Virus record (IMG/VR): IMGVR_UViG_3300035187_003505
Length of the DNA stretch: 64,000 nucleotides
DNA from: an uncultured virus (IMG/VR IMGVR_UViG_3300035187_003505)
Taxonomy: Duplodnaviria; Heunggongvirae; Uroviricota; Caudoviricetes
Reading direction: 5' to 3' (one strand)
Below are positions 2,467-62,976 of this stretch, piece by piece (positions within the stretch are counted from its first letter, which is position 1; each line of letters starts with the position of its first letter). The notes under the pieces were generated by a model that was not told the DNA's origin, made no database searches, and was given only the letters and a program-made list of their open reading frames with translations. Made by a program: the position numbers and the translations under genes.

Positions 2467-3165
2467 ATGAATGACCCTCTTTCCCACTTCATTGCCCGCT
2501 CCGGCAATGCCAAAACCGGGCCGATCTCTTTGACTCTAACCGAGGAGTCCTCCTGTCCCACAACCTGCCCGCTCAAGGGCCACGGCTGCTATGCCTCCTA
2601 CGGCATGGTCCTATTCCACTGGTCAAAAGTCCCCACTACCGGGATCTCCCCAGAATCCCTATTCGCCAAGCTCCGAGAGTTACGCCCCGGCGCCTATTTC
2701 CGCCACAATGTGGCTGGCGATCTCTGGCACAATACCGGCCAGCTCATCCCCCGGCTTGTCCTTGGCCTGGCCGCTGCCGCTGCCCATCTCAAAGCCTGGA
2801 CATACACGCATCACGTCCTATCTCCCGCCAATCTCCTCGTAATTCGAGAAGCAATCAGCCGGGGATTCTGCATAAACATCTCCACGGAGACCCCCGAGGA
2901 CGCCGCCTCCTCCTTCCGGCAGGGCCTCCCAACTGTCCTAGTGGTCCCTCCTGAATCCCCCACCCATTTCAAGATCGACGGGATCCCCGTCATCCAATGT
3001 CCAGCTAACACAGCAAATTACATTACCTGCTCTAACTGCGGAGGAAAGCAGGGCCCTATCTGTGCTCGTCCCGCTCGCACAGTTATTGTCGCGTTCTGGG
3101 CCCACGGGGCTGGCCGCAAAAAAGCAGCGGCTATCGCCCGTGGCGATAACTCCGGGGATCTCTGA
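2467..3165 (+). CDS. Cys-rich GP88/DUF7227-like phage protein
   Basis: SGNAKTG, CPTTCPL..GCYA, RHNVAGD, WTYTH, CPA..TCSNC..C motifs. Confidence 0.7.
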   Translation: MNDPLSHFIARSGNAKTGPISLTLTEESSCPTTCPLKGHGCYASYGMVLFHWSKVPTTGISPESLFAKLRELRPGAYFRHNVAGDLWHNTGQLIPRLVLGLAAAAAHLKAWTYTHHVLSPANLLVIREAISRGFCINISTETPEDAASSFRQGLPTVLVVPPESPTHFKIDGIPVIQCPANTANYITCSNCGGKQGPICARPARTVIVAFWAHGAGRKKAAAIARGDNSGDL

Positions 3166-3297
3166 TGTATCCCCGCTCTGTCCGGTCCATGGATCCTCCC
3201 ATGGACCCACCCGACCCCCCGGAGAGGGATGATAACGAGTCCCCTCCGGGGGACTGGCTTGACGATTTTCTTTCCTACTACCCCAATCCTGATTCCG

Positions 3298-3561
3298 ATG
3301 AACATGTCAACCCCACCACTTTCTGAAGAGCAAGTAGCTAAGCGATTGGCTCTAAATAGGCTACGGCCTATCATGAAGATCGCCGTAGATGCCATGAGCA
3401 GAGATCCGCTTGCTAATGAAAAAGCTCTTGCTAATTACATACCAGCACGGGAACACAGATGGATTCGTTCCGCCTGGGGAGCAGCTACTAATGAGGGGTC
3501 AACCACTCTGGATCTAAAAGACTGGATGATCGAGCAAGCAGGGTTAGCGGAAACTCCATGA
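3298..3561 (+). CDS. hypothetical protein
   Basis: ATG after pyrimidine-rich leader inside ORF 3229..3561. Confidence 0.55.
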   Translation: MNMSTPPLSEEQVAKRLALNRLRPIMKIAVDAMSRDPLANEKALANYIPAREHRWIRSAWGAATNEGSTTLDLKDWMIEQAGLAETP

Positions 3562-3660
3562 AACTAGCCCATCTAGCCCAATACGCCTTCGGCGTGACTA
3601 TGGGCCTAGCTTTCGCCGCATCTGCGGTATTCCATGCAACCCATCCTAACCGTTCTCCCC

Positions 3661-3909
3661 ATGTCCCTCCTCTCCCGCTTTTTCCGCAAACAGAAGACCA
3701 CCCGTACCTGCATCGTAACTTGTAAGCTATAGGTAAATGGTGCTTGGAGCGCCCCGTTTGGCAAACGAGCAGAGTTCCACTGTTTCTCTACCGACCACGA
3801 GGCATACGAAAACGGGCCGGGGTTACAACCCGTGGCCATTGTTGAATATGTAGACGGTAAGGTAGAAGCCGTCCATGTTAGTAAGATAAGATTCATCACA
3901 CCTCTATAA
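3661..3909 (+). pseudogene. small phage gene interrupted by one in-frame TAG (3730-3732)
   Basis: Hand translation MSLLSRFF..CKL*VNGAW..FHCFSTDHEAYENGPG..AIVEYVDGKVEAV..IRF; downstream part resembles a common phage family. Confidence 0.55.
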
Positions 3910-3933
3910 GAGTAACCTCTTCCACTAACCATC

Positions 3934-4173
3934 ATGGATAAAATCTGGGTCTTAACCCGATCTCACAATGACCACAACCAACACGGACACTACTTCGTAG
4001 CCCCCTTCAAACAACTACCTACAGTAGAGCAGCTACTCGACTTTACTAAAGACGAAGTCGATTACAGTAACGTCACAGATCTGCTCAAGTTCCTCCTACA
4101 CCTCCAAAAGGGTGGAGGACGCATCAATGACGAACAAGTCTGGTTTACTCTTACACAAACGGTTCTATACTAA
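3934..4173 (+). CDS. hypothetical protein
   Basis: ORF tiling. Confidence 0.65.
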   Translation: MDKIWVLTRSHNDHNQHGHYFVAPFKQLPTVEQLLDFTKDEVDYSNVTDLLKFLLHLQKGGGRINDEQVWFTLTQTVLY

Positions 4174-4272
4174 TCAGACGACGCCCCGAAGCCTCCTGTC
4201 TCCCCCGGCAGGGGGCTTCCTGGCGCCCTCTGCGCCCTGGTCCCACTCACCCCGGCTTCTGCCGTACCATCC

Positions 4273-4683
4273 ATGCCTACCTCCACTGCTCCAGCCACTT
4301 CCACAACTGCCACAAAGCCCCGTTCGCAGATCAAAGTCCCCCCTCAGCCAAAGACTTACTCCCCTACTGGGGAGATTGGTGGCAGGGTGGCCAAGGCGTT
4401 CGCCATCAAGTTAGAGATGGACCGGCTGAAAGCGCAGCTAGACGGTCATGTCGCAGCGCTAAAAGCGCACGCTGTTAAGAATAACATCAGCCGGATTGAT
4501 GTTGGGGAGTTTCAAGTGCAGATCAAGAGTAGGAATAATTGGGAATACAGCGTAGCGCTGCAGGCGAAAATGCTTAAGATTGAGCAAGAGCAGAAGCTGG
4601 AGCAGCTTAATAAGAAAGCAAAGAATACTCCGACAATCTACGCTGCGTTGGCTGTTAGCAGCAAAGCTGCTTCGCAGGGTTGA
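4273..4683 (+). CDS. hypothetical coiled-coil protein
   Basis: ORF with helical composition. Confidence 0.7.
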   Translation: MPTSTAPATSTTATKPRSQIKVPPQPKTYSPTGEIGGRVAKAFAIKLEMDRLKAQLDGHVAALKAHAVKNNISRIDVGEFQVQIKSRNNWEYSVALQAKMLKIEQEQKLEQLNKKAKNTPTIYAALAVSSKAASQG

Positions 4684-4686
4684 GCC

Positions 4687-5013
4687 ATGAGTCATCAAAT
4701 AGCGGATGAGATGGTTCGGCAAGAGATCAGCAACGCTGTAGAGAGTGTTGAATGGCATATTGTCAATAGTGACGCCACTAATGATCTAATGTCTAAAATC
4801 CGTCAAGGGTGGACTTTAGACCAATGCAGGAACCATGTAATCTATCAGATCCTGTTTATACGCTGGCATTTATGCGCTAGCTCAGCCGAATGCAACCCTG
4901 AGCGCTTCTTCCTCTCTTATCTTAAAGAAGAGATAAAAGCTAACGGCAATGTTGAGGACTTGAAGTTACCAGTATTTACAGCATTAAAACCATCCCCCGA
5001 GCCCGCCCAATGA
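4687..5013 (+). CDS. hypothetical protein
   Basis: ORF tiling, ATGA overlap. Confidence 0.6.
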   Translation: MSHQIADEMVRQEISNAVESVEWHIVNSDATNDLMSKIRQGWTLDQCRNHVIYQILFIRWHLCASSAECNPERFFLSYLKEEIKANGNVEDLKLPVFTALKPSPEPAQ

Positions 5014-6222: not shown

Positions 6223-6821
6223 AATCCCCGAAAGCTCTTAAACTCAAGCCTGACGGTAGCTATAGCTTTAAGTTCTCTATAGCTCAACAGCGGCTACTCC
6301 TAAGCCTCCTGAACGCAGGGGCTACAGCTATAGCCATAAACTCCCAACGCTTTAGAAAAACTGCCTACGTTCTCCAACGATTACATCTAATCGTAATTGT
6401 CGAGCACCAACACACTGACCCTCCTTACTTCAACCTGCGCCTCACCAATGCCGGGCTAGCCACCGCTATAGAACTGCGGCGGCTAGCTAATACCACTCAA
6501 TTACAACTCGATCTTCAGTCTAATCCAACCCCTACTCCAATGACTCAATCTTCCGCCCCACAGCCCCCCGAGCTTGTCCTCCCTCAGATCAATCTAAACG
6601 GCAACAGCCGTGAATCACTGGTAAAAGATTATACCGAGGCTCTTGATGCTCAGAATACAGCATTGGCCTTATTCCTAAAGATTGACTTCCACGGGCGCAA
6701 TTACCAGACTCTCCCAGACGGGAGCTTCGAAGCTGCTCGAAAATCCCGCGAAGTGGTGATCGACCACTTCCGCGCCATCGACCGCTACCTCATGGCCCAT
6801 CTGGAGGCCATAGAGTCATAA
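6219..6821 (+). CDS. hypothetical protein (possible second start at 6540)
   Basis: ORF; C-terminal half has INLNGNS...HGRNY family-like motif. Confidence 0.6.
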   Translation: MKSPKALKLKPDGSYSFKFSIAQQRLLLSLLNAGATAIAINSQRFRKTAYVLQRLHLIVIVEHQHTDPPYFNLRLTNAGLATAIELRRLANTTQLQLDLQSNPTPTPMTQSSAPQPPELVLPQINLNGNSRESLVKDYTEALDAQNTALALFLKIDFHGRNYQTLPDGSFEAARKSREVVIDHFRAIDRYLMAHLEAIES

Positions 6822-6916: not shown

Positions 6917-6948
6917 AGGTTGACAACCTCTCCTGTTCTTGATAGGTT
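6917..6948 (+). promoter_or_regulatory. sigma70-type promoter with overlapping palindrome
   Basis: TTGACA (6920-6925)-17 nt-TAGGTT (6943-6948) with upstream TG; AGGTTG-A-CAACCT inverted repeat over the -35. Confidence 0.65.
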
Positions 6949-6985
6949 GACCACATACCCGCAATCGCGGCCCCCCCCCACCTTC

Positions 6986-8092
6986 ATGCAGAACTCCTTC
7001 AACCAGACCAGCACCACTGTCGATCAAGCCTTTGCTCGTGACGGCAAGGGTCTCATGGTCTACGGCAACTACCGCGCCGCCGGTTACGCCGTCAACCCCC
7101 TCAGCGAGGTAGCGGGCGGCATTCTCGTCTCCCCCGACGCCACCCCCGAGGCCGCCTTCTCCCAGGCTGGACTCACCTGGACTGCAGACACCACCGATGT
7201 GGGCTTTACCACTGGAGTCCCCGGTGGTGCATATCACCCAACCGCAGCTTATAAATCCATCGTCCGCTCCGACACAGGTGGGCTCCTGGCCATCCACGGC
7301 CCTGGCTATACCCCTGTCCAGAACCACGAACTTAGAGGCATCTTCGATGCTCTAGAAGGCCGCGCCCAAATAGAGGACATCCTCTCCATCAACGGAGGCG
7401 AGCGTGTCTACATCACGGCTACAATCAACGCTCAGAATGATGTCCTCCCCGGCGACGTAGTCCGCCGCTACCTCCATCTGAGCAACGGCCACAAGGGTAG
7501 CTCCCTCCGCGCCTACTTCACAGATAAACGACTGTTCTGTGCCAACCAACTATCATACTTCGATGGCACGGTGTTTAACCAGGCCAACAAGAAAGGTGAT
7601 GCGCTCAAGCACCGACATAGCCGTGGAATCACGGAATTCATCCGTCGTCTTCCCGGTCTCATAGACGCGGAGATCCAGCAATTCCACACCACAATCGACG
7701 GCTTCCGCGCCATGGCGGATGTCCAGGTGACCACTGAACATGCCGCACAGGTATTGAGCGCTGCCTTCGCGGATCGCCTCGCAGTCCCCATCCGTGACCG
7801 CACCAGCACCGACCGTTCGACAATGCGCAAGCGCACACTGCTAGATCTCAACGACGAGGTGGATGCAATCCGCAGCCACGCCTATGGCGACACTGGGATC
7901 GGCTTCGACTTCCCTGGCATGCGTGGTTCCCTTTGGGGGCTCTACAACGCCATCACCCAGTACACCACTTGGGACACCGGGCGGGCGAAGGACCCTCTCG
8001 ATCGGGCCCGTGGCCGCCTGGAGGCTCTCTACGGCGGAGCCGGCTCCCAGCGCATCGAGCGGGCCCGCGAAGCGTGCCTTGCTTTGGTTTGA
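6986..8092 (+). CDS. DUF932 family protein
   Basis: AGLTW, IVRSDTG, YTPVQN, GGERVYI, LSNGHKG, RLFCANQ, RHS, GSLWGLYNAITQY motifs. Confidence 0.85.
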   Translation: MQNSFNQTSTTVDQAFARDGKGLMVYGNYRAAGYAVNPLSEVAGGILVSPDATPEAAFSQAGLTWTADTTDVGFTTGVPGGAYHPTAAYKSIVRSDTGGLLAIHGPGYTPVQNHELRGIFDALEGRAQIEDILSINGGERVYITATINAQNDVLPGDVVRRYLHLSNGHKGSSLRAYFTDKRLFCANQLSYFDGTVFNQANKKGDALKHRHSRGITEFIRRLPGLIDAEIQQFHTTIDGFRAMADVQVTTEHAAQVLSAAFADRLAVPIRDRTSTDRSTMRKRTLLDLNDEVDAIRSHAYGDTGIGFDFPGMRGSLWGLYNAITQYTTWDTGRAKDPLDRARGRLEALYGGAGSQRIERAREACLALV

Positions 8093-10141: not shown

Positions 10142-10501
10142 ATGTCTTTCCCCTCCTTCAATCGCAGCATGGGCGGCCCCACCACTCCCCCCGAGCCCGC
10201 CCAATCCAATAACGATCCTCGTGAGTGTTTCATTTCCAGCGAGTCCTTGCTCAATGTAGGTGATGTAGGTCCCGAATTGTTAATTACTCCCTCCGAGCTT
10301 ATTACAACAGACAGCACACTAGCTATCTTCGAAGAGGCTGAAGCCGAATCAGCCCTGACTACTAGAGGCGAAGCAAAAAAGCTAATCTCCGAACGCATCA
10401 AGGAACGCAATCGCCTACGGATGCTGCTAGAGAAATCAGAAAACGAGCTGGCCAAACTCCTCAAGAAAACCCCTGCGGAGATCGCCGCCTTGCGGTATTG
10501 A
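10142..10501 (+). CDS. hypothetical coiled-coil protein
   Basis: ORF tiling. Confidence 0.6.
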   Translation: MSFPSFNRSMGGPTTPPEPAQSNNDPRECFISSESLLNVGDVGPELLITPSELITTDSTLAIFEEAEAESALTTRGEAKKLISERIKERNRLRMLLEKSENELAKLLKKTPAEIAALRY

Positions 10502-11209: not shown

Positions 11210-12220
11210 ATGACTCTCGCTACCACTGCCCCAATTCTGGATACTGAAGTATTTACACCGTTCGATCGTGTCACTTCAGACATTGAAATAGCGGAAAAAG
11301 AGGCAATAGCCGATTTTGGTGACTATAAAAATCCCGATGTAAATAAGAGAGCGCGTAGTTATGTAGCCAAGCTGCGTAAAGTAAGAGCTTCGGTTGATAA
11401 GACTCGCAAAGCGCAGAATGAAGCAGCTCAAACATATATTCAAGATGTCAACACATTCTCTAAAAAGCTAGAAGCGCGTGTTACATCGCTCATAACGCCT
11501 CATGAAACAATCCTCAAGAGTATCAAAGATGAAGAAGATGCTCGTATAGCAGAGCACGAAAACAATATTCAGGTCATCATCGACATGGGGAAAGCTCCAG
11601 TAGGAGTTGGATCTGCACAGATCCAGGAATACCTAGACATCCTGAAGGGGATTGACCATAAAACCTTTGAAGAGTTTACCCCTAAGGCGGATGCGGAGCT
11701 AGTCATTGCTACCGCCGCGTTGGAGCAGACCCTCCAAGCTGCTTTGGACACTGAAGAAGCGGCGGCCCGAAGGGAGCAAGAGCGCAAGGATGCTGCAGAA
11801 GCCGCCCGTGTTAAACGGGAGCAGGATATAGCTGATAAGGCCGCAGCCGAAGCTAAAGAGAAGGCGGAGGCAGAGGCCGCTACCGCGCTGGACGCGGAGC
11901 GTAAGAAAACCGAAGCTGCTGAGCAACGTGCCGCGAGAGCAGAAGAGGAGAAAGAAGTAGTGGTGGCAGAGGCCGCTGCAGCGAAGGTTGAAGTAGTTCC
12001 ACAAGTAAGACTGGTGGTGAATAGAGGATGTGCCCCCTGGGCCCGTACCCCCGAGCCCGTAGCCGCGCCCCCCTCCGCTCCTACCAAAGCGCAACGCCGC
12101 AAGCTGTCCGAGTTTATCCAGGAAATGGTCTTGGATCACTCGGCCAAAGACTTTGCGCAACTGCTTGTAAACGGAGAACTCCACCCAGCAATTTCTATCG
12201 ACTGGAGTGAAGTCTGCTGA
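11210..12220 (+). CDS. long coiled-coil protein (DUF1351-like)
   Basis: AR...AKLRKVRASVDKTRK...I...E..R pattern with Ala/Glu/Lys-rich helix. Confidence 0.7.
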   Translation: MTLATTAPILDTEVFTPFDRVTSDIEIAEKEAIADFGDYKNPDVNKRARSYVAKLRKVRASVDKTRKAQNEAAQTYIQDVNTFSKKLEARVTSLITPHETILKSIKDEEDARIAEHENNIQVIIDMGKAPVGVGSAQIQEYLDILKGIDHKTFEEFTPKADAELVIATAALEQTLQAALDTEEAAARREQERKDAAEAARVKREQDIADKAAAEAKEKAEAEAATALDAERKKTEAAEQRAARAEEEKEVVVAEAAAAKVEVVPQVRLVVNRGCAPWARTPEPVAAPPSAPTKAQRRKLSEFIQEMVLDHSAKDFAQLLVNGELHPAISIDWSEVC

Positions 12221-13459: not shown

Positions 13460-13802
13460 TACCTGCGAAGAGGTTCTAACCAAATACGGTGTCTGCAATT
13501 ACGCAGAAGTCGGGAGGAGGTTAGGCATCAGCCGCCAGGCCGTATACCAACGGCTAACTACAGCCGTCGCGCAAGGAGCCATCAGCCAGGAACGGGCAGA
13601 CAGCTACCGACCAACATCGACCAAGTTGACCCAGCGATTCAACACGTCACTCTCCCCCGAGAACGATGAGTTCATACGAGACCTGGCGAAGCTGCTTCAC
13701 ATCCAGCCTGCTTACATCCTCCACGCGGCGGTTAATCGCTACCGCGCCTCGTTGCTTAGCAGCAACCTTCTTGAACCCCTCGACGAACTTCCCCATGTCT
13801 AA
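13419..13802 (+). CDS. DNA-binding protein (HTH plus possible ribbon-helix-helix)
   Basis: NYAEVGRRLGISRQAVYQRL HTH; C-terminal RFNTSLSPENDEFIRDLAK..PAYILHAAV RHH-like. Confidence 0.75.
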   Translation: MTYVSKTSLQSILDTCEEVLTKYGVCNYAEVGRRLGISRQAVYQRLTTAVAQGAISQERADSYRPTSTKLTQRFNTSLSPENDEFIRDLAKLLHIQPAYILHAAVNRYRASLLSSNLLEPLDELPHV

Positions 13803-14896: not shown

Positions 14897-15661
14897 ATGT
14901 CTCTCACCATCACCGCCTCGGGCATTCTCCAAAGCGACCCCCGACTCCGCGTTCAAACCCTCACCGCCCTCCACAATCCCAACCAAGCCTCCTGGTTCGG
15001 CATGCGCCAGGACTACTCCGAACGCTTCGTGGGGGATGAAACACCGCCCCCCGAGCACGATGCCGGCCTAATCCTCGTCAAACGCCTCCTCTCCGGTGAA
15101 CGAGGCCATTACGGCCCGTTAGAGCACAACGTCATTGTCTTCGGTGTAGCAGGATTCCCTCATTCGGTAATGCAACAGGCCCGTACACATCGGGTCGGGA
15201 TTTCTTTCGATGTTCAGTCGATGCGTTACACAGGATCAAGGATTGTGGATTATGTTAGACATATAAACAGTATGCCTAAGTTCGATGATATATTTTTTCA
15301 ACGCCCTGTGGGGCTCTATCATGGACGAAATGGAAGCTATTACAATTATTCCAAAGAAGACCGTGACAACGACATGTATCTTATGAATGAAACCGCTAAG
15401 CGCTATTCAGATCTAGTCCATCGAGGCGTAGCCGAAGAACACGCCCGAGGAGTATTAGCCTTCGAATATCGCCAGAATTTCGTAGTTAGCTTCAACATCC
15501 GCTCGCTCATGCACTTCCTCGATCTACGAGCGAAGCTCGACGCACAGCTAGAAATCCAAGCCCTTTGCGAGTTGATGATGGTTGAGTTTGAAAAATGGAC
15601 GCCAGCTATTGCTGCTTATTACAAAGAAAAACGTTGGGGTAAGGCGAGGCTGGCACCATGA
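14897..15661 (+). CDS. thyX: FAD-dependent thymidylate synthase
   Basis: GHYGPLEH, QQARTHRVGISFDVQSMRY, EHARG, N.RSLMHFLDLR...AQLEI motifs. Confidence 0.95.
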   Translation: MSLTITASGILQSDPRLRVQTLTALHNPNQASWFGMRQDYSERFVGDETPPPEHDAGLILVKRLLSGERGHYGPLEHNVIVFGVAGFPHSVMQQARTHRVGISFDVQSMRYTGSRIVDYVRHINSMPKFDDIFFQRPVGLYHGRNGSYYNYSKEDRDNDMYLMNETAKRYSDLVHRGVAEEHARGVLAFEYRQNFVVSFNIRSLMHFLDLRAKLDAQLEIQALCELMMVEFEKWTPAIAAYYKEKRWGKARLAP

Positions 15662-16324: not shown

Positions 16325-16579
16325 ATGAAAACCTGCAACGGCTGCATTCACGCCAAATGGCGCCTCACTACCACCGGGCGGCTCCACCCCAGCGGGGAGG
16401 GGCAATGCACAAAGCGCATCAAGATCCCAGCCATCCCGGCCTGCCAATACTGGCCAGGGGGGATCCCCCCGAGGCCGACAGGAGGCTCCATTTCTCGCCG
16501 CCAGGAACTCGATGACCACTGCGTCTACTGGGAATCTCCAAAGCCTCTTGCGACTGATTCTCAATCTCAACAGCCCTGA
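16325..16579 (+). CDS. Cys-rich hypothetical protein
   Basis: C.GC.HA.W....GRLHPSG.G.C motif. Confidence 0.65.
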   Translation: MKTCNGCIHAKWRLTTTGRLHPSGEGQCTKRIKIPAIPACQYWPGGIPPRPTGGSISRRQELDDHCVYWESPKPLATDSQSQQP

Positions 16580-22952: not shown

Positions 22953-23011
22953 GGAGTCCCATGAGACTCATACTGAGACAGCCCCTGTGACCCCCGAGCC
23001 CGCGTGATCCC

Positions 23012-45490: not shown

Positions 45491-45516
45491 CCCCCGACCT
45501 CGGGGGTTTTTATTTT
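45491..45516 (+). terminator. intrinsic terminator
   Basis: CCCCCGA-CC-TCGGGGG hairpin then TTTTTATTTT. Confidence 0.8.
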
Positions 45517-46318: not shown

Positions 46319-46776
46319 ACAAAGTAATAGTAGATCTCCGCCATATATTAAGTCAACCGGATACTAATTGGGAGGAGATCTATTTAGTAATTAGGGGTTC
46401 ATACATAGGTGCCGACTACCCGGCACACAGATTCTTAAGAACCCCTGTTAAAACTATTCGACAACTTCTTATTACTATTGATTTTCGTGCTAAACACGAA
46501 GCTAACGTGGCTAGTGCTGCAACAGCGCATGTAGCACATCATTTAATACAATATATGCACCGTCAAATCTACGGGGATAAAGATGTACCTACTACAGCCC
46601 CTAAAAACTTTTTACCTTTTCCAGATCTTAAGTACCCTGAGGAGGACGATAAAAATTCAAATACCCTAAAATCTAGTACCAGAACTATATTAAACAAACT
46701 TGCAGCTACCGGGCGTATTCCGCTAAAAATCAAAGAAGCTTTTACAGATATGCCCCCCGAGCTTGGGCGAAGCTGA
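46267..46776 (+). CDS. tail assembly chaperone extension (GT-like) reached by -1 frameshift
   Basis: G GGA AAG at 46267-46273 in correct phase; -1 frame open 46240-46776. Confidence 0.8.
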   Translation, partial: GKGHPAYDDSQSEKFDLDKVIVDLRHILSQPDTNWEEIYLVIRGSYIGADYPAHRFLRTPVKTIRQLLITIDFRAKHEANVASAATAHVAHHLIQYMHRQIYGDKDVPTTAPKNFLPFPDLKYPEEDDKNSNTLKSSTRTILNKLAATGRIPLKIKEAFTDMPPELGRS

Positions 46777-52923: not shown

Positions 52924-53319
52924 ATGACTTCTCCGAGTTACACCGGCTGGCACCCCTGGCTAGGACTACCTCACCGCATTGGTGCCGACCCCCGCAACGG
53001 TGAAGCCTGTTGCTGCCTAAGGATGGCCCAGATCATCATGGAGGAGATCGGGAGGGATCCCCCCGAGATCGACCCCCGATGGGAGCATTTGGCCCGAGAA
53101 CGCCGCTGGACTGATCTATACGAAGAGTTCCAGCTCATTGCGATTAAAGCCGCTGTAGATGAAGAGCTATGGTCTCTAGTCCCATTACTAACTCCAGTGT
53201 CTTTCGGCATTGGGGTTGTAGTTCCTGATAAGTTATTGCTAGCCGTACATCACCGCCAAGGGCTCACGACAGTGCCTCTACTACAGTTAAAAAGTCCGCT
53301 TTACTATAATTTGCGGTAA
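52924..53319 (+). CDS. NlpC/P60-like tail tip assembly protein (gpK-like)
   Basis: WLGLPHR.GADP....CC.; position before tip protein. Confidence 0.65.
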   Translation: MTSPSYTGWHPWLGLPHRIGADPRNGEACCCLRMAQIIMEEIGRDPPEIDPRWEHLARERRWTDLYEEFQLIAIKAAVDEELWSLVPLLTPVSFGIGVVVPDKLLLAVHHRQGLTTVPLLQLKSPLYYNLR

Positions 53320-56300
53320 TGGAGTACAAACCTTTACCTAGCGACGAGTACCTAGCAGAAATGCTGGGACTTACGCCAGCTCAAATGGAATGGTTTCAGC
53401 AAGAAATTGATAGCAAAGTTAAAATAGACCCTGGTGTACCGCAAGCAGGTCTTGAGACTTTAGCAATAGTATCTGCTGGACTGAGCATAGGATTTAACAT
53501 AGCTGCAAGCTTTTTCAAGCCAAAACAAGGTGGAGGTAAAAATGGGGGCATTAAAACACAATCGCCAGATCCTGTAAACATCACAAGAAACCAGAAATTT
53601 GCCCCTAGAAGAGGTTTCGATAGCGTACAACAGCCAGCAATTCTTGGTACTACTACCCCAGTAATCTATGCCAACCAGCTTTATATGCTGGCGCAGGCTT
53701 CACCCCCGAGGCCGGAAGGTCGCTATGGAGGAGTGAGGGTCAACATGCAATTACTCTGGAGCCAGATGCTCAGCTCCAGTGGCAGCCAGATATTAAAAGC
53801 TATTTTCATGCTCGGGGAAGGCAGGATTTGCTGTATAGATCCAAAGAGTTTCGCCGTAGGGGATAACACTTTAGGCACTTATGATTTAGACACCGCAGCC
53901 GCCCAAGCTGCAGGGAGGCTAACGCTCTACTACGCTGGTAATGGAGGTAGATTAAGAAGCACTGATTATTTAGCTGGTAGATCCCCAAGCACTGATATAG
54001 GTAACGCCGAAAATACTGGAGGAGCCGATGTATTTTCAATTAGATCTGAAGGAAACGCATGGAGGCAAGATTCTTGCTTTACGGCCAAGCCATCTACTCA
54101 AACCACATTTGGAGTCTACAACATAATACCTAACAACTTAGGGTTGAGAATAAATCCTCGTATTCGTCCAACAATAAATCTATGGACTAAAAATAGAGAA
54201 AGTAAGAAAAAATACGAGGTTCGTGTAAATGACGATGCCGTAGCACTAGCTGATATGTGGAAATCTAGATACTGGTGGTCAGGGCGCAGTGGGATTATAT
54301 CTACAAGCACTGGCAGCTCCGTGCTAAACGTTGGAGATACATTTGTGTATATGTTGTCGAAAACATCTGCAGCGACTACACAGATAAAATTTGAGGCTTC
54401 TAACACAAATAATCCATCTGAGGCCGAACCTGGAATTGCAAAATGCGCAGATATAGCTAATACCATAGCATCGCGTCAAATGAGTGCTGCTAATGCGCTA
54501 TCCATAGGTGAGTTATATAAGGTAGGTTCTTGTCTAGCTGTTGTTACGGAAATATCACCATCAGACAAAGTGTTTAGTAGCGAAGTGGACAACTACCCGG
54601 TTAGAGGGGGGCAATCTATATACTACACCTTTACAGTAGTCCGTAACGGAGTTATTACTATAATACCTTTGTCTAGAGTAGACAATGATGATACTGACAA
54701 AATAATATATCCTCCACAGTGGGCAAAAGCCACAAATACTAGACAGCAGAACCTAGCTAGTTATCCCAACGGCACTGACTATGATACCGCTACAAGCACT
54801 GCACAGATATTCCGCTGCGCTATAGCAAACATTCAGTTAAACCAGAGAGTAAAGTGCTTTGAGCTAGGAATAAAATCTGCAGTAGGTATTAGAGCTTCAG
54901 GTCTTTGTAATTTCAAAGATGCTAAAAGATTGGATGAAGTCAACTATGTAGCCGGTTATAAATACCATGAAACTCTGCATGATCCAGACAAAGACATAGA
55001 TACTCAAAACTTCCAATCAGGTCAGTTAAATGACACCGCAGAGAGATACTCATTTTGGAGGATGAGTATAGTCACTGAAGATGGTACTCGTGTTGTGCTG
55101 CCGGCGTCTATTGGTATTCGTAGTCAAAGCCAGCAAGCAATATATAATTACATACGTGTAGAGCAGCCAGTAGCAGCTACACCACAAATTGAGCTTGAGC
55201 CACTGACCGGCTGGGAAATACGCAATGGGCTGGCTGTAGCCCCCTTTATTGTATTAGACGGTAACATATCTTCATCTAATACTCTTAACTTAGGAGGTTA
55301 TTTAATAACATGGTCTGGAACAGTAGTAGAAAATACATCCGATACATTTAGACTTCATTCTTGGGAACCTAACGAAGATTTAGGGTATAAGTGGACAGAC
55401 ACTGCAGGTAGAGACTCTATGCTTGATTGTTGGGGTAAGGTAGCTGAAGCTTTTGTGTACGAAGAGGTGCAGACTACCGCTGCTCAGGGTCCAGAACATG
55501 AAATAACCTATGTTAACGTCATAACCGCCAATGAAACAACACCTAAATATGACTTTTTAGCCATAGTCGGTGGTGTATTCCGTGCAGCGACTGAATGGAG
55601 CCAGTTTGCCCAATTCTCGGTTAGGGTTACCGGGGGACGTATGGTAAGGCGAGTTTTACATAGCAATAGTCCAGGTCCCAGTAATTTGCTACCAGACATA
55701 GGTTATGACCTATGTCGTAGCTCACGTTTAGGACTTGGTCAATCTGTAAGCGACAAACAGCTAGATCTAGTATCATTCTACAATACAGGCTTATGGCTAA
55801 AGAAGAGACGATACTTTTTTGATGGTGTACTAACAGAAAAAGTTAATATACGCCAATGGCTAGCGGACATTGGCGGGACTATGTTAGTAGATATTACAGA
55901 GAAAAACGGTAGGTTAGCGATGGAGCCGGCGGTGGTCTTCCCCGAGGACGGGACCGGAAAACCTCCAATATCCGGGCTTTACACTGCAGGCAACATATTA
56001 CCCAACTCGTTTTCGCTAACATTTATACCAGAAGAAGATAGACAACCTATCCAAGCATCAGGTAAATGGCGAGAAGAACGTTCGCGGGCGTCATACACGA
56101 GAAATGGTGTATTTCCAGTTGAGCGGGAGGTACGATTGCGGGAGGCCGACCGGCCAGAATCCGACCCCATAGAGGTTTTCGATCTATCAGAATATTGTAC
56201 CAATTTTGAACAATGTGTCGATGCGCTTTGCTATATTGTACGGCTTCGCCGGCTGATTACCCATTCTGTGCAGTTTAGCACTCGCCCTTCAGGAATACTC

Positions 56301-56714: not shown

Positions 56715-56717
56715 ATA

Positions 56718-57989
56718 ATGCCAGGTACTCCCGCTGATCTTGTAAGTCGTAGTCTACTGGTAGGTAGAACTGGACTATCGCTTACTTACACTAACGACAG
56801 CTCTCTAAATAGCAGAAATCTTGTAATACCAAGAAATCCTTCTGATGGGTTAATAGTCTCAAGAGCATACCCACTAAGCTCCAGAGTGCTTACTCTAGAA
56901 AGAATCGCACACATAGGGCGATTTACAAGTAAAACCCAAAAACATACTTCTCGTGACCTTGTTATAGATAGAGTCGTACTCGGGGGGACCTTGTCCGGGA
57001 CTTTACTCTACCCTTCTGCGATTCCCACACAAGTACAGTTCAAACCACCTAAATACCCTGTAACTGAACACCCAACGCAGTCAGGTGAGGTAGAAGTACA
57101 GTTATGGTCAGATTCAAATACTAATGCTACGCTAACTCTTGACTATACAAATTTATCAGACACAGTAGCTGAACAGATTTTAGCTCTATGGGATGCTTTA
57201 TATGGTACATATAAATCGCTGCGTATTCCTATAGCTACGTTAGCTGGAGTAAACCAGCAGCTAGCTGTATATATGTTAACTGGAGGTAAAAATTCACAAT
57301 GGTTCTTTGCTGAAGTCCCTAAGTGGGTAGGTAAGATTAAAGGGTACGGTGATCTTAACGTTATACTGGTCTCACAGCCTGTTATGCTAGCTAGCGCTGT
57401 AGGAGGTAATTTTCCATTTATACCTATAACCTCTATAGACGGCGACTTAACATCAGATTACATAAGTTGCGATCATACAGAACAATCACCGGATTTAACC
57501 GATTTCACCTACGTTCGGTGGGCGGGAACGCAGTGGTCGGAGCGGGGCCGTGGCTTCTCAGGTGGGGCGCAGCTAAACCCGCGCCCAGATCCTAACGGCC
57601 CACCGAACATCGTATCGGGTTGGCTGCCGTTGCGTAACACGGAAGGCCAGCTAATTACATATGGTATTGGAGGGATTGAGTTACAGGGATGGTATAACGC
57701 TGTAGGCTACCTGGGCTCTTGGTATTCAAATATAGACGTTTATATACCTTCGTACCCCACTGCAGGCAGCGCCGTTGGCGGAGATTTGGGTGTGTTCAAT
57801 CTTTACAGAACACTATCAACGTCGACGCAACCTTTTCAGTCCAACGAGACCAATGGTGGATATGGTTTTTCACGATACGCTCCCGACACATCAAACTTCG
57901 CCGAGTCCAGAGGCCGATGGGAATTTGCCGACAGCAACTATAGTATATTATCGACATGGGAGGGCTACTCCAAATTGCGCCCAGTGTAG
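56718..57989 (+). CDS. tail protein with distal-tail-like domain
   Basis: F.P..Y.V...LTL.YTN.S.....I...WD..Y domain shared with 58045..59175. Confidence 0.7.
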   Translation: MPGTPADLVSRSLLVGRTGLSLTYTNDSSLNSRNLVIPRNPSDGLIVSRAYPLSSRVLTLERIAHIGRFTSKTQKHTSRDLVIDRVVLGGTLSGTLLYPSAIPTQVQFKPPKYPVTEHPTQSGEVEVQLWSDSNTNATLTLDYTNLSDTVAEQILALWDALYGTYKSLRIPIATLAGVNQQLAVYMLTGGKNSQWFFAEVPKWVGKIKGYGDLNVILVSQPVMLASAVGGNFPFIPITSIDGDLTSDYISCDHTEQSPDLTDFTYVRWAGTQWSERGRGFSGGAQLNPRPDPNGPPNIVSGWLPLRNTEGQLITYGIGGIELQGWYNAVGYLGSWYSNIDVYIPSYPTAGSAVGGDLGVFNLYRTLSTSTQPFQSNETNGGYGFSRYAPDTSNFAESRGRWEFADSNYSILSTWEGYSKLRPV

Positions 57990-58044: not shown

Positions 58045-59175
58045 ATGACAATCGAATTTCCAGCATTAAAACCATCAAGTTATAGCTTTACCCCAGCCGT
58101 TTACAATGTTACTGCCCCTAAATTCCTTAATTCCACCTTCTCCCCTCGCTTAAATTCGTCTAAACCTAATGCTGCTGTTTTGACATTAAACTACACAAAC
58201 ATATCAGCCGCCAAAATACTGTCTATCTTCTCCGCCTGGGACTCTTCATACTCTGGATTCTTTCCCCTGGCACTGCCCCCCGAGATCGTAGCTGGCATTA
58301 AATCTACGGATTTTGCAGGGCGGATAGTTGGACCTAAATCAACAGGTTGGCGTTTTTTAGCAGAACCTAAATTAAATAATTTAATAGCTGGAGTAGGTAG
58401 CATATCAGTAGAATTAGAAGGAGAATTTTACCAAATAAACAACAGCAGCACAGCTTTATTAAATACACCCGCATTACTTACTTCGCGCTCCCTTGCACTA
58501 GCTAGAATATCCCATGAAGGCGTATTTGTAGATAATCCCACACCGAACACAATGGTGTTTACGTCTAATAATCCTAATTTAAGGTATGTACCAGTGCCTA
58601 ACAGCAGCGCTAACACAAGAGCTATACAATTAAACAATACTGGATCGGCAATGAATACCGGAGGGACACCTAACTTAAGAAATTGTATCTACACCGGATT
58701 AGTGTGTGATGCCCCTTTGGTATCCTGGCAGCCAGTAGGGCAAGAAGTAGTTGGAAATATAAATGAAAGTGCTTTTAATGACAACAATCCAATTGCGACT
58801 AACGCTATAAATTCTCAACGATTTGATTATTATTTCGGTACTGGTAATTCTGCAGGGGCTAATACTATAATATGGACAAACACACTCAATTTAATATTTG
58901 GTGCTTTCTATCTTGTAGGTCCTTACCCTATCTGCGGATCAGCCAACACTGTTAATTTACTTAGTGTCAATAACACCGCTTCCGCGCAATCAATAAGTAC
59001 ATCACCCTCGGGCCTAGCAGGTAGCCAAAACTCTATAAATAGTTCTACATATAATATAGTATTTGGGGCTTCAGGTATAACCGGTACACTACAATTCTAC
59101 GCTTCTACAATTACCCAACAATCTCCTTATTACAGTCTAAATAGTGGGACTATTACTATAACAGTTAATATATAG
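58045..59175 (+). CDS. tail protein with distal-tail-like domain and Asn/Thr-rich C-domain
   Basis: FP.LKPS..SF.P, W.F..EP pattern. Confidence 0.7.
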   Translation: MTIEFPALKPSSYSFTPAVYNVTAPKFLNSTFSPRLNSSKPNAAVLTLNYTNISAAKILSIFSAWDSSYSGFFPLALPPEIVAGIKSTDFAGRIVGPKSTGWRFLAEPKLNNLIAGVGSISVELEGEFYQINNSSTALLNTPALLTSRSLALARISHEGVFVDNPTPNTMVFTSNNPNLRYVPVPNSSANTRAIQLNNTGSAMNTGGTPNLRNCIYTGLVCDAPLVSWQPVGQEVVGNINESAFNDNNPIATNAINSQRFDYYFGTGNSAGANTIIWTNTLNLIFGAFYLVGPYPICGSANTVNLLSVNNTASAQSISTSPSGLAGSQNSINSSTYNIVFGASGITGTLQFYASTITQQSPYYSLNSGTITITVNI

Positions 59176-59234: not shown

Positions 59235-59663
59235 ATGACAACCGCTCCCCAGTATTTCTTCAATTCCTACATAGCCGATCTTCACAATGGTGTTCATAAC
59301 ATCGGCTCTAATACACTAAAACTGGCCCTCTCCAACACGCTCCCTGTTGCTACAATAACCGACCTCGGGGGGATCACTCAGATAACTGCCGGGGGAGGCT
59401 ACACTTTAGGAGGGTTTACCCTTACAGTAGCCTCCTCGACACAGAGTTCTGGTGTCTATAAAGCCCTGATCAACGATCTTACATTCTCCCCAACTGGCAC
59501 CGTCAATACTTTCCAATATCCTGTCCTATACAACTCTTCAGTAGGCAACAAAGTCATCTGCTGGTGGGATTACGGCGTAGCCCAAAATCTAGTCTCCGGG
59601 GACACCTTCCTATTTGACTTCGACGGTACACTTGGTGGGCTTAGGGCCAGTTTCGCCGCATGA
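59235..59663 (+). CDS. structural protein
   Basis: LKLAL.N..P, GYT.GG, Y.VLYN, DYG....L..G.TF pattern. Confidence 0.7.
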   Translation: MTTAPQYFFNSYIADLHNGVHNIGSNTLKLALSNTLPVATITDLGGITQITAGGGYTLGGFTLTVASSTQSSGVYKALINDLTFSPTGTVNTFQYPVLYNSSVGNKVICWWDYGVAQNLVSGDTFLFDFDGTLGGLRASFAA

Positions 59664-60058: not shown

Positions 60059-60918
60059 TGTCACTTATCGGCAAAGACGGTATTATTCAACTAGCCCGAG
60101 CCTACCCAGATCCCATAGTGCTCCCCCCGAGTGCGCTAGACATTGCTAATAGCCAATTTACTATTAACTCTACAGCATTTTGGCCTGGAGATGAAGTTAT
60201 ACTTATACACTCTGGCGGTACTAAAACTGGATTTGTTTGGCGAGACGCTCTGGACAGAATAACAATCCATACTACGGCAGTAGGGGCTCAAGACAATAGC
60301 CCCTCTACTAAAATTAGTTTATCTACTGTACCATCTGCAATTACTATCCTGTGCTTAAAAGGTAGCACTGATGCTACTGCAATTCTAACTTCATTCTACA
60401 CTACACTAACTACAATAATTACAGAGACTTCACTATTAGCATATCCAGCAGTTAATAGCAACTATACGGTAGCTAATTCAGGATCCCCTCTATGGGCTAT
60501 TCAAGGACACATAAAAAAGTGGAATCTCAAGCTCGGGGGGAACACTACTGATACTGGATCCTTAGGAGAGCGTTTTGGAGATTCCATAAAAACCACAATA
60601 TCTGGCTCCGGTACTTTCGATTTTATGGTAGATTTTCTAGAAAATTCTAATGGCACAAACGACATAGACATTATACTCCGTATGGCTTTAATGGTGGAGA
60701 ACGAGGCTAAAGCTCAGACTAAACTATATCTAAAAAAACGTACAGAAGCACGAGTTAGATCTGTAGACGGTAATAACATAGTGTACTTACCAGGATCTGT
60801 GTATTACCAAAGCTCTATACTTCTTATAGACACAAGCCTAGATACCAACCCAGATGACTTTATCACCGGTTCCGCTAGTTTTGTCACAACTGGGCCGGTT
60901 AGGTTGTTCAGAGATTAG
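60058..60918 (+). CDS. tail protein with tube-like C-domain
   Basis: W.L......DT.SLGE.F......ISGSG.FD...FVTTGPV.L. Confidence 0.7.
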   Translation: MSLIGKDGIIQLARAYPDPIVLPPSALDIANSQFTINSTAFWPGDEVILIHSGGTKTGFVWRDALDRITIHTTAVGAQDNSPSTKISLSTVPSAITILCLKGSTDATAILTSFYTTLTTIITETSLLAYPAVNSNYTVANSGSPLWAIQGHIKKWNLKLGGNTTDTGSLGERFGDSIKTTISGSGTFDFMVDFLENSNGTNDIDIILRMALMVENEAKAQTKLYLKKRTEARVRSVDGNNIVYLPGSVYYQSSILLIDTSLDTNPDDFITGSASFVTTGPVRLFRD

Positions 60919-61368: not shown

Positions 61369-62081
61369 ACCCCTTCCTTTGAAGGAGTGCGCCCAGCACC
61401 GGGCACGAAGTGACCACCAGTCAGAATTGACAAACCGATGAATCCTGCTGTAGGCCCAGCACCGAGTTCGCCAGTCCATCTGGTACGAATCCAGTGGTAA
61501 AACTCATAAAAGCCGGCACCATTTGTAGGATACATGTCTATCCTACTAGGATGCACCAAGCTTACACCAATAGATCCACCCCAAGCAGCTCTTATGGTTT
61601 CGTAAAGATTCACCATCCGCATAATTGCGCCCTCTTCCCAAGAGCCGTTTATTGGCCTTTCTTCTGTATTCCATTGTACTACCTCCCCTACTGTTAGATT
61701 AGGAGACACTCTGCACATAAAGTTAGTCCAGTCGATAGTAATACCTGGCTCAAACGGTAATGCTCCTGGAAAAGTCCGCCTCCAGGCTGAAGATCTGATC
61801 ACGCGACTACCCCCGTACCCCCCGAGTACGACATTCTGTTCTCCGTGCTTCACGACATTGCCTACTTTAACCACATCATAACACTCTCCCGTTTCTACTA
61901 ATGCAGTTTTATCCGTAAGCCCTTCCTCCTCAGGATCCGCCATCTCCATCAACAATGTTGGATGCAGCGCAATTATAGTAAACAGCACCGCAGGCTTAAC
62001 AGTTTCTTGCACCACAGGTACTTTCTTATCCATCTTTTGTACAGCCTTGTCTCCAGGAGTCGAAGCGTTCTGGGCAGCCAT
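61362..62081 (-). CDS. degenerate peptidase M15-like protein
   Basis: RVSPNLTVGEV...IRAAWGG.IGV...DMYP...W.GELG.G...GF; expected Zn-ligand His residues not visible. Confidence 0.6.
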   Translation of the reverse strand: MAAQNASTPGDKAVQKMDKKVPVVQETVKPAVLFTIIALHPTLLMEMADPEEEGLTDKTALVETGECYDVVKVGNVVKHGEQNVVLGGYGGSRVIRSSAWRRTFPGALPFEPGITIDWTNFMCRVSPNLTVGEVVQWNTEERPINGSWEEGAIMRMVNLYETIRAAWGGSIGVSLVHPSRIDMYPTNGAGFYEFYHWIRTRWTGELGAGPTAGFIGLSILTGGHFVPGAGRTPSKEGVY

Positions 62082-62107
62082 AGTAAACCGTTGATGTGAC
62101 TTACACT

Positions 62108-62137
62108 ATTCTATCTTATCTCGCGTGCATCTGTCAA
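62108..62137 (-). promoter_or_regulatory. sigma70-type promoter for 62081..61362
   Basis: TTGACA (62137-62132)-18 nt-TAGAAT (62113-62108) on minus strand. Confidence 0.7.
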
Positions 62138-62142
62138 CAGAC

Positions 62143-62177
62143 AAAAAAAAAGCCTAGGGCTTTTACGTCCCTAGGCT
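62143..62177 (-). terminator. intrinsic terminator after cyAbrB gene
   Basis: AGCCTAGGG..CCCTAGGCT stem then T run on minus strand. Confidence 0.8.
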
Positions 62178-62224
62178 CATCACTTAGAAAAAAGGGCAGC
62201 TCACGACTGCCCGATATTACCGAA

Positions 62225-62689
62225 TTAGATTTCGGCGGCTTCCCCTCCAGCCGCCTCAGTAGCCTCAGTAGCCTCCGGCGCTTCGGCAACAGCCTTCGGC
62301 TTCTTCTCGTACACCTTGAACGGCAACGGACTGCCCTCCACCCGCTGTGCCACATCAAGGACAAGCTGCCCAGAAGCGGGATCGACAGTAATACTCAGAG
62401 TGTCGCCAGGGCCGATACCGGCCTGTTTGGAGTAGATCGCACCAATCAGCACCGAGCCATTTTTATGGACAGTTGTCTCATTGGCAGCAGCACGACCTCG
62501 GGTCTCAGAATCGAACTTCACACCTTTGGCTTCAAGCACAGCGTCGGTGAACCGACCAAGATCAGCGACAATATCGCCTTTACGGGTCTTGCGTTCGTAA
62601 CCGGCCATGCGAGCCAGCACCGAGCGGTTCTTGATGTCAGGGTTGTCCTTGACCAGGGCCAGGAGGTCACGGCCAGTAAGAAGAGTCAC
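62225..62689 (-). CDS. cyanobacterial AbrB-like transcriptional regulator
   Basis: LTG.DLL..VK, LAR..GY, F..A.LEAKG, GR......VHKNG..LIG..Y....G..PGD. Confidence 0.88.
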   Translation of the reverse strand: MTLLTGRDLLALVKDNPDIKNRSVLARMAGYERKTRKGDIVADLGRFTDAVLEAKGVKFDSETRGRAAANETTVHKNGSVLIGAIYSKQAGIGPGDTLSITVDPASGQLVLDVAQRVEGSPLPFKVYEKKPKAVAEAPEATEATEAAGGEAAEI

Positions 62690-62763
62690 AGAGTTGAATT
62701 GGTTCAGACCTTAGTATTGTACGCCCTGGTGGGCCTTAACACAACCCCTGGAAGACGCAAAAC

Positions 62764-62976
62764 TCAACTTGCTGTCAGCAGATCCTGGATGAACTGGTCA
62801 CCAGCGACCGCAACCCCGTCAGCAGCGAAGAGCGTAATGTGCTGCAGCCGGCGCCTCAAGCTCTGTTTAGTGACCTCCAGCGCGATACCCGCCTCCACCC
62901 AGGAGCTTTCTGACTGAGCTTCCCCGAGGGCGCAAGCTATTTCACGACGTAGCTGAGAGTTTTGGCTGGAGGCCAC
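62764..62976 (-). CDS. hypothetical protein
   Basis: Fills the gap between polymerase and cyAbrB genes. Confidence 0.5.
   Translation of the reverse strand: MASSQNSQLRREIACALGEAQSESSWVEAGIALEVTKQSLRRRLQHITLFAADGVAVAGDQFIQDLLTAS

Follow-up and report, generated by a model that had tools for sequence, protein, structure and literature searches.

We analysed a stretch of 64,000 nucleotides (nt) of DNA from an uncultured virus (IMG/VR record IMGVR_UViG_3300035187_003505), called the window below, and a short polar word that is repeated throughout it. The window is part of an uncultured cyanosiphovirus of about 75 kb. Based on Pfam and PHROGs it encodes the proteins of a tailed phage (small and large terminase, portal, head protease, capsid, tape measure and tail proteins), and further products were ThyX, a dCTP deaminase-like protein, MazG, a Lar-like protein, an Acb2/Tad1-like protein and a DUF932 protein. 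No transfer RNA (tRNA) genes were found in the window. A near-identical IMG/VR record of 75.6 kb (G001) is 92-98% identical to the window over 46.8 kb, and in this record the replication module runs on beyond the window. The additional 12 kb of G001 encode a sigma-70 family protein, a RecD-like helicase and a primase-helicase of 919 residues with a PrimPol domain, a DnaG-type CHC2 zinc-ribbon and an AAA_25 helicase domain. The sequence of the window also occurs in public lake-water metagenomes, in 24 runs that are all stored as contigs.

An exact count gave 42 copies of CCCCCGAG in the window, 32 on the plus and 10 on the minus strand, at the same positions as in the original prediction; the estimate made there of about two copies by chance agrees with dinucleotide shuffles, which had 1.82 copies on average and never more than 5. 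As had also been claimed, CG follows after two free bases in 37 of the 42 copies and position 12 is G in all 42. The shorter CCCCGAG was found 57 times (42 plus, 15 minus), with the tail NNCG in 50 copies, NNTG in six and GTAG in one, and this bears out the earlier remark that the further CCCCGAG copies mostly share the NNCG tail. As a sequence pattern only, (C/T)G ends 56 of these 57 copies. The consensus of the word is CCCCGAGNN(C/T)G, with nine of 11 positions specified, and its density is about one per 1.1-1.5 kb genome-wide. Its strict form, CCCCGAGNNCG, has 50 copies (38 plus, 12 minus), where dinucleotide shuffles gave an expectation of 0.37 and a maximum of 3. CCC stands in front of 50 of the 63 copies of the core CGAGNNCG in the window, and therefore one-off variants are not enriched. 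A literature search by the letters of the word returned primer tables and noise only, with no account of the word, and searches on primase recognition and strand bias likewise gave no description of it. The sites are listed below with their 11-nt coordinates in the whole stretch, taken from the exact pattern count.

2892..2902, plus strand, CCCCGAGNNCG site
4995..5005, plus strand, CCCCGAGNNCG site
6566..6576, plus strand, variant site CCCCGAGCTTG (NNTG)
7144..7154, plus strand, CCCCGAGNNCG site
10189..10199, plus strand, CCCCGAGNNCG site
12049..12059, plus strand, CCCCGAGNNCG site
13655..13665, plus strand, CCCCGAGNNCG site
15049..15059, plus strand, CCCCGAGNNCG site
16467..16477, plus strand, CCCCGAGNNCG site
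18511..18521, plus strand, CCCCGAGNNCG site
21428..21438, plus strand, CCCCGAGNNCG site
22207..22217, plus strand, variant site CCCCGAGCCTG (NNTG)
22992..23002, plus strand, CCCCGAGNNCG site, intergenic
24447..24457, plus strand, CCCCGAGNNCG site
26146..26156, plus strand, CCCCGAGNNCG site, intergenic
27659..27669, plus strand, CCCCGAGNNCG site
28034..28044, plus strand, CCCCGAGNNCG site
28696..28706, plus strand, CCCCGAGNNCG site, end of the all-plus stretch
29612..29622, minus strand, CCCCGAGNNCG site, first on minus, near the point opposite the inferred origin
30882..30892, minus strand, CCCCGAGNNCG site
32044..32054, plus strand, CCCCGAGNNCG site
32671..32681, minus strand, CCCCGAGNNCG site
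32923..32933, plus strand, CCCCGAGNNCG site
32993..33003, minus strand, CCCCGAGNNCG site
33437..33447, plus strand, CCCCGAGNNCG site
33982..33992, plus strand, CCCCGAGNNCG site, within a minus-strand dCTP deaminase-like gene
34366..34376, plus strand, CCCCGAGNNCG site, within a minus-strand gene
34974..34984, plus strand, CCCCGAGNNCG site, within a minus-strand gene
35385..35395, plus strand, variant site CCCCGAGCCTG (NNTG)
35731..35741, minus strand, CCCCGAGNNCG site
36955..36965, plus strand, CCCCGAGNNCG site
37498..37508, plus strand, CCCCGAGNNCG site
39501..39511, plus strand, CCCCGAGNNCG site
39844..39854, plus strand, CCCCGAGNNCG site
40017..40027, minus strand, CCCCGAGNNCG site, NNTG in the relative G001
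43391..43401, plus strand, CCCCGAGNNCG site
43625..43635, minus strand, CCCCGAGNNCG site
43829..43839, plus strand, CCCCGAGNNCG site
45495..45505, minus strand, CCCCGAGNNCG site, intergenic, within a CCCCCGA..TCGGGGG hairpin
46248..46258, minus strand, off-consensus copy CCCCGAGGTAG
46755..46765, plus strand, variant site CCCCGAGCTTG (NNTG)
48043..48053, plus strand, CCCCGAGNNCG site
51733..51743, plus strand, CCCCGAGNNCG site
51877..51887, minus strand, CCCCGAGNNCG site
51994..52004, minus strand, CCCCGAGNNCG site
52224..52234, plus strand, CCCCGAGNNCG site
53061..53071, plus strand, CCCCGAGNNCG site
53704..53714, plus strand, CCCCGAGNNCG site
53807..53817, minus strand, variant site CCCCGAGCATG (NNTG)
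55940..55950, plus strand, CCCCGAGNNCG site
56975..56985, minus strand, CCCCGAGNNCG site
58278..58288, plus strand, CCCCGAGNNCG site
59360..59370, minus strand, CCCCGAGNNCG site
60125..60135, plus strand, CCCCGAGNNCG site
60528..60538, minus strand, variant site CCCCGAGCTTG (NNTG), gone in G001
61820..61830, plus strand, CCCCGAGNNCG site, within a minus-strand gene
62922..62932, plus strand, CCCCGAGNNCG site, intergenic

When the codons of the window were shuffled synonymously, CCCCGAGNNCG appeared on average 4.6 times on the plus strand (maximum 9) as compared to the 38 observed, and 2.4 times on the minus strand (maximum 5) as compared to 12; this null is generous because the word's own codons stay in the pool. 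Codon permutation gave 3.3 copies on plus and 2.2 on minus. Among the 56 sites, 32 are sense, 19 antisense and five intergenic or partial, with C CCC GAG NNC G (Pro-Glu) as the favoured register of the sense copies (23 of 32) and Leu-Gly as that of the antisense copies (11 of 19). A codon or peptide artefact is ruled out by the two kinds of shuffle and by enrichment in all six frames, as had been proposed from the mixture of reading frames. A hairpin signal was not supported: windows of 51 nt at the 56 sites had a weaker mean folding energy (-4.85 kcal/mol) than 881 windows matched for guanine-cytosine (GC) content (-5.89 kcal/mol). One hairpin does involve the word: CCCCCGAGGTCGGGGG at 45495-45510 on the minus strand, in the gap after the gene at 44437-45465, has its stem made by a single copy and looks like a terminator that reuses the word.

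G001 carries 56 copies of the word, divided 43 to 13 between the strands, and comparison with it showed that the word evolves three times slower than its flanks. Over 47 aligned sites the nine specified positions were changed in 8 of 423 cases (1.9%), whereas the 30 bases on each side were changed in 159 of 2791 (5.7%; Fisher p 0.0004). Sites were intact in both records in 43 of the 47 cases, and three of the four lost sites were minus-strand or NNTG copies. The regions that do not align have sites of their own, nine in the window and 20 in G001 (including its extra 12 kb). The slow change and the codon shuffles support the original prediction in that the word is a gapped recognition site selected at the level of DNA.

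The orientation of the sites follows the genome strand over transcription, as had been suggested, and all 18 sites through position 28,696 are indeed on plus. Within minus-strand open reading frames (ORFs) the sites are on the genome plus strand in seven of seven cases, although not all of these small ORFs are certain to be genes; the sites that can be relied on are 33982, 34366 and 34974 in the genes at 33692-35215 and 61820 in the gene at 61362-62081. Base skew was considered as a cause of the strand bias and rejected: the plus strand is C-rich (GC skew about -0.1), and by our reasoning this would favour the opposite orientation for the core CGAGNNCG. Plus-strand sites are spaced more evenly than expected by chance, both in the window (coefficient of variation (CV) 0.64, P 0.002) and in G001 (CV 0.63, P 0.0004), with a mean gap of about 1.5 kb.

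Megablast of window positions 1-25000 against the phage collection gave no close relatives. Relatives of the phage were collected through the capsid protein. The capsid search yielded 1426 homologous proteins at E <= 1e-10, of which 20 were aligned, and the alignment brought 80 viral loci. By capsid, the nearest phage in culture is Synechococcus phage S-CBS4 (52.5% identity). It lacks both the word, which is not enriched at all, and the primase-helicase, for which it gave no more than a weak match to the helicase domain (E 5.5e-7). From the relatives we took three complete genomes whose capsid is about 68% identical (G407, G408 and G409; 66-71 kb, 56-63% GC). They contain 19-49 copies of the strict 11-mer, 78-89% of them on plus, and 399, 422 and 184 copies of the core CGAGNNCG, respectively, as compared to 58-107 for the reversed control. 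The core exceeded synonymous shuffles in every frame, for example with observed to expected counts of 28/6.3, 18/2.8 and 197/88 in the sense frames of G407. On the genome plus strand of the three relatives it reached 2.2-2.5 times expectation in plus genes and 3.4-3.7 times in minus genes, while on the genome minus strand the values were 1.0-1.4 and 1.6-2.6. The enrichment of the core tracks the genome strand and not the genes, and therefore an RNA-level or transcription-coupled signal is largely ruled out. In many relatives (L028, L030, L032, L062 and others) the most frequent 8-mer is CGAGCTCG, a palindrome that matches the core on either strand; L062 has 16 such sites in 20.9 kb, as compared to 5.2 in synonymous shuffles.

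We also counted the word in cyanobacterial genomes. In five genomes reached by a 16S primer scan it was no commoner than its reversed control. The densest of 401 genomes sampled across the phylum had 510 copies in 3.5 Mb, a density about one sixth of the phage's. One genome, Vulcanococcus limneticus LL (G004), was counted in both sets and has a background of 178 sites in 3.5 Mb. In this genome and in Synechococcus sp. CS-1330 (G002) the core was depleted as compared to synonymous shuffles (200 kb each; 239 observed and 356 expected in G004, 178 and 265 in G002), and the depletion extends to the off-frames. A host repeat of the HIP1 kind was therefore rejected, as no sampled cyanobacterium comes near the density of the phage and the core is depleted in the two picocyanobacteria, with the phage's own host not identified; the original prediction had named an equally abundant host repeat as the finding that would overturn it. 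An apparent 20-100-fold excess over the control in G014, G020, G202 and other genomes of about 54% GC is an artefact of a depleted control word. In the one of these that was opened, G202 (140 copies in 5.2 Mb), the real excess is about two-fold, as its loci have 54% GC and almost no copies of the control word. The reversed control GCNNGAGCCCC itself has 0-4 copies in about 5 Mb in G202, G020, G014, G334 and similar genomes of about 54% GC, a rarity that may reflect avoidance of a GRGCYC-type restriction site.

Dense clusters of the word were found at particular loci of picocyanobacterial genomes. On contig C36 of V. limneticus 12 strict copies lie within 3 kb, spanning the 3' half of a gene for a PrimPol/zinc-ribbon/AAA_25 protein of 983 residues and 2 kb past it. 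Over 774 residues this protein shares 42% identity with the phage's primase-helicase. Beyond the gene there are an integrase-like ORF (a sub-threshold Pfam match, E 0.0088) and what we read as the end of a tRNA gene. A second copy of the element in the same genome, on contig C41, has 11 sites in 4.4 kb in the same place. Homologous loci, with 34-100% identity to the island protein, numbered 19 in 16 of the 301 picocyanobacterial genomes covered by an order-level search. CCCCGAG is the commonest 7-mer in 11 of these 19 loci, and 15 of the 19 have at least four strict sites, within 3.4-5.9 kb. One island (L335:1461-18840, G619:C15) combines an integrase fragment, SMODS and patatin proteins (CBASS-like), a complete type I restriction system, DUF932, DUF6926 and the primase-helicase; its defence cargo is almost without the word, and the core of the island has 15 sites in 8 kb.

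All four word-bearing phage genomes encode the primase-helicase, at 42-45% identity. No other partner accompanies the word in both the phages and the unrelated mobile islands, and the protein is encoded outside the window, where the replication module entered at the window's end continues in G001. The readers proposed earlier (the helix-turn-helix protein at 13419, cyAbrB, the small terminase TerS and basic virion proteins) are all within the window and are not supported; for cyAbrB, Pfam found no AbrB domain in the window. DUF932, which in family scans is encoded in the window and stands beside the primase-helicase in three of six island genomes examined, was rejected as a reader because it is missing from G004, G576 and G566, which keep the word. 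The two window genes concerned are:

6920..8092, plus strand, DUF932 gene (family scan)
63027..63998, minus strand, 3' part of the family A DNA polymerase gene, first gene of the leftward replication module

At 24 loci of distant homologues in other cyanobacteria no CCCCGAG was found, and different local words are present there. Six loci with distant AAA_25 helicase/primase homologues (L288, L290, L291, L295, L301 and L303) each have their own repeated word, examples of such local words being CGATCACC (12 times), TGATCAGT (7) and TGGTGCGG (6). Origin words private to each element may thus be a general feature of this helicase class.

The orientation of the word flips at the 3' end of the primase-helicase gene. 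With eight islands oriented so that this gene is on plus, our tally gave 52 of 56 sites on minus in the stretch 9 to 0.4 kb upstream of where the protein match ends, and 18 of 24 on plus in the first 1.3 kb downstream. The flip is found at the same place in all four phages. In G001 (reverse complement) the sites at 1994 and 2096 are minus and those at 2442, 3166 and 4284 plus; G407 has four minus sites inside 430 bp and then plus sites, and G408 three minus sites and then plus. The short core behaves similarly in G408, with six minus and one plus copies in the left 700 bp and 12 plus and no minus copies in the right 2.5 kb. In every case the word points 5'->3' away from the flip point, and therefore the copies would lie on the lagging-strand template.

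Short element-specific repeats in both orientations are interleaved with the word at the flip point. In G001 the repeat is GATTTTGCAACC, with at least seven copies within about 210 bp and no exact copy in the 64-kb window; the two islands of V. limneticus have AACGAGCGACA and ACGAGGGACA, G619 has GGAATTTATTCAC, and other repeats were found in G408, G409 and G575. At the flip point of G407 no repeat was found at the settings used. It is these element-specific repeats that behave like classical iterons, and the conserved word does not: it is dispersed over the 64-kb window and is identical where the origin repeats differ. Because the iterons sit there, the flip point is likely to be the replication origin. 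In G001 these repeats lie in the stretch that codes for the C-terminal end of the primase-helicase, a long acidic tail (G001 L006:13380-13715). The tail is poorly conserved, and most homologues have an aromatic residue close to its end. Such a tail recalls T7 gp4, which has a polymerase-binding tail.

Taking the flip point as the origin of a circular replicating form, we tallied the strict sites of the four phages at genome scale. The half-circle to the right of it has 82 plus and 5 minus sites and the left one 62 plus and 29 minus, so that 29 of the 34 minus-strand sites are in the left half-circle (binomial p 2e-5, for syntenic genomes that are not independent). That the window is all-plus to 28.7 kb and has minus sites from 29.6 kb can be explained by the point opposite the putative origin, which lies close by.

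In the alignment of the primase-helicases most invariant columns are in the PrimPol and zinc-ribbon parts, and the C-terminal domain is only 21-34% identical. This domain was modelled as three helices and a two-strand wing (predicted local distance difference test score 81). The folds that came closest were winged-helix domains that bind DNA, among them those of the replication terminator protein and of Orc1/Cdc6 on origin DNA, although the search against the PDB gave no match at E <= 0.001 (best 1.5e-3). On this model, an economical reading would be that the variable winged helix serves the variable iterons and the conserved primase part the conserved word.

With moderate confidence, we propose that the word is a polar replication signal, the conserved recognition or start site for the element's own PrimPol/zinc-ribbon/RepA-like helicase/winged-helix protein. 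Enrichment, selection, polarity, the flip, the iterons and the co-occurrence are results; that this protein is the reader of the word, and that it uses the word for priming, is what we infer. The origin would lie within the 3' end of the primase-helicase gene, where the iterons would recruit the protein, presumably through the variable winged-helix domain, and the few opposite-strand copies of the word would start the leading strand. Elsewhere the word would be on the strand running 5'->3' from the origin, that is on the lagging-strand template, and this would be the track of a 5'->3' helicase-primase; RepA-like helicases have this polarity. The plus-strand copies found about every 1.5 kb in the lineage of the window would then be Okazaki start sites. 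We would guess that a purine placed opposite the C/T of position 10 is the first nucleotide of the primer; the last G of the word would be a 'cryptic' 3' nucleotide and stay uncopied, as the last G does when DnaG acts on CTG, and the C-run would yield a G-rich 3' end of the primer. The protein may work as a unit like T7 gp4 or RSF1010 RepA/RepB', with the helicase riding along and the primase attached. Bidirectional replication followed by a unidirectional, rolling-circle-like mode could explain, as a speculation, why plus sites are everywhere and minus sites one-sided.

The primase site of T7 gp4 is 5'-GTC-3' and that of E. coli DnaG 5'-CTG-3'. A precedent for a longer site is the PrimPol of phage NrS-1, which recognises the 8-nt template word 5'-TTTGGTTA-3' and 5'-GTG(A/G)-3' (PMC8718748). 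The word described here resembles primase sites in being a template-strand word on the putative lagging-strand template, with a primase fused or coupled to a helicase as its putative reader. As a sequence pattern, the constant G behind a pyrimidine at its 3' end would be compatible with a primer that starts with a purine at that pyrimidine. Its orientation reverses at the putative origin in the eight islands and the four phages, as expected of a primase site. The word differs in having 11 positions, nine of them specified, in being selected genome-wide at about one per 1.1-1.5 kb, and in remaining unchanged across phages and islands with proteins 35-45% identical. The alpha protein of P4 unites primase, helicase and origin-binding domains and acts on type I iterons in ori and crr. 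Both systems have one polypeptide with primase, helicase and C-terminal DNA-binding domain and origin repeats beside or inside its gene; here, however, the iterons are a second, element-specific set of repeats, and the word is separate, polar and dispersed genome-wide. In RSF1010, ssiA and ssiB are read by the RepB' primase with the RepA helicase, and are hairpins of about 40 nt, one each. They too are element-private priming signals on opposite strands at the origin, with a helicase of related type (AAA_25/RepA-like), whereas the present word is short, has dozens of copies and shows no excess hairpin potential.

These freshwater islands resemble the tycheposons of marine picocyanobacteria, which have primase/helicase hallmark genes (10.1101/2020.12.28.424599): they adjoin a tRNA gene and have an integrase-like gene, a primase/helicase and defence cargo. 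In the portion of that text at hand no iteron or polar word is named, and 'motif' is used once, for the attachment site (10.1101/2020.12.28.424599).

Of the analogies drawn in the original prediction, that to mycobacteriophage stoperators fails. Stoperators are bound by a repressor, lie mostly between genes and are oriented with transcription, whereas here 51 of 56 sites are inside ORFs and their orientation is that of the genome strand. Chi and KOPS are host-wide over-represented, skewed words that lie in genes, flip at the origin and are read by host machines. An over-represented, strand-skewed, gene-embedded word whose orientation flips at the putative origin is what we see as well, pointing away from there with about 75% of copies in one orientation, and a polar signal of this kind could protect or orient the DNA of the element through a host machine such as RecBCD/AddAB or an FtsK-like translocase. 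This word, however, belongs to mobile elements alone, and it is rarer than expected in the picocyanobacterial genomes that we examined, with no over-representation in G004, G002 or the sampled cyanobacteria (the phage's own host not being identified), and it tracks the clade of an element-encoded protein and not a host clade. We therefore regard a signal for a host machine as very unlikely. Still less credible, and largely refuted, is a transcription-coupled signal on the non-template strand, like ops/RfaH, or a pause or antitermination site for a phage sigma-directed polymerase. The shape of the word is like that of ops (eight specified positions, two free, a pyrimidine and G), most copies are on the sense strand and G001 encodes a sigma-70 family protein; nevertheless the word keeps to the genome plus strand inside minus-strand genes, where it is more enriched antisense than sense, as it also is throughout the primase-helicase genes of the islands.

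Two other explanations stay closer to replication. The same primase-helicase could read the word as double-stranded DNA, as a directional site, comparable to a primosome assembly site, where the helicase is loaded onto one strand or restarts, in which case the dispersed copies would be secondary origins or fork-restart points and not primer starts. Polarity and co-occurrence fit this equally, the protein has the modelled winged-helix domain and the word adjoins iterons at the flip point. On the other hand, the winged helix is the least conserved part and the iterons vary, while the word is constant, which fits the conserved PrimPol/zinc-ribbon part better, and there would be no obvious role for C/T and then G at the 3' end; we consider such loading unlikely, if worth keeping in mind. 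The word could also mark programmed single-strand nicks, as in T5, phiKMV and tf, made by a site-specific nickase and used for strand displacement by polymerase I. A strongly strand-biased, evenly spaced and phage-private word would suit nicking, and the phage encodes a family A polymerase. Neither in the window nor in the rest of G001, however, did Pfam, PHROGs and NCBIfam reveal a nickase or an endonuclease of the HNH or another type, the small islands are dense in the word but are not packaged phage genomes, and the flip with iterons points to replication initiation. Nicking thus appears improbable.

Several points weigh against priming at the word. DnaG and T7-type primases use trinucleotide sites, and a site of 11 nt is far longer. 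The geometry alone equally fits a Chi/KOPS-like or a helicase-loading signal. In the left half-circle plus sites still exceed minus sites (62 to 29), which needs the assumed second, unidirectional mode. The even spacing is absent in the relatives, where the short core is Poisson-spaced with a CV of about 1, and the sign of the GC skew is not the usual one of a bacterial leading strand, so that the skew gives no support. The replicates are not independent, because synteny unites the four phages and several of the islands are closely related (66-91% identical). Finally, the shuffles and the frame and strand tallies rest on our own greedy choice of ORFs.

Some other genes of the window were also noted. 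Candidates for counter-defence are an Acb2/Tad1 hairpin-domain protein at 12207-12557 (plus strand; E 4e-18), a Lar-like restriction-alleviation protein at 23012-23293 (plus strand; E 8e-9) and a small zinc-ribbon protein of the NrdR N-terminal type with a weak Lar match at 16585-16899 (plus strand). Among the head genes, 35270-36319 (plus strand) encodes a protein-kinase-like protein (Pkinase E 3e-8, with Bud32-like matches) and 31940-32830 (plus strand) a protein whose C-terminal part resembles a J-domain (DnaJ models, E 4e-8).

More tentatively, and with rather less confidence than we attach to the replication signal itself, we suggest that lake and marine cyanosiphoviruses and tRNA-associated picocyanobacterial defence islands may share one replication language of 11 letters. 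The PrimPol/zinc-ribbon/helicase would start chains only at CCCCGAGNN(C/T)G, the Okazaki starts would be written into the genes and the host chromosome would be invisible to the enzyme. Because the word is the same but the iterons differ, the islands could be satellites of the phage replisome, replicated by it or competing with it. The shared cis signal would also link a lytic phage family to defence-carrying islands. If the proposal is true, this would be a primase with a long and conserved sequence specificity, and the lagging-strand start points would be legible from sequence in a clade of abundant uncultured cyanophages and mobile islands, with the origin, the fork direction and the reader protein all deducible in the same way. 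It would also show how a mobile element keeps its replisome private from the host chromosome.

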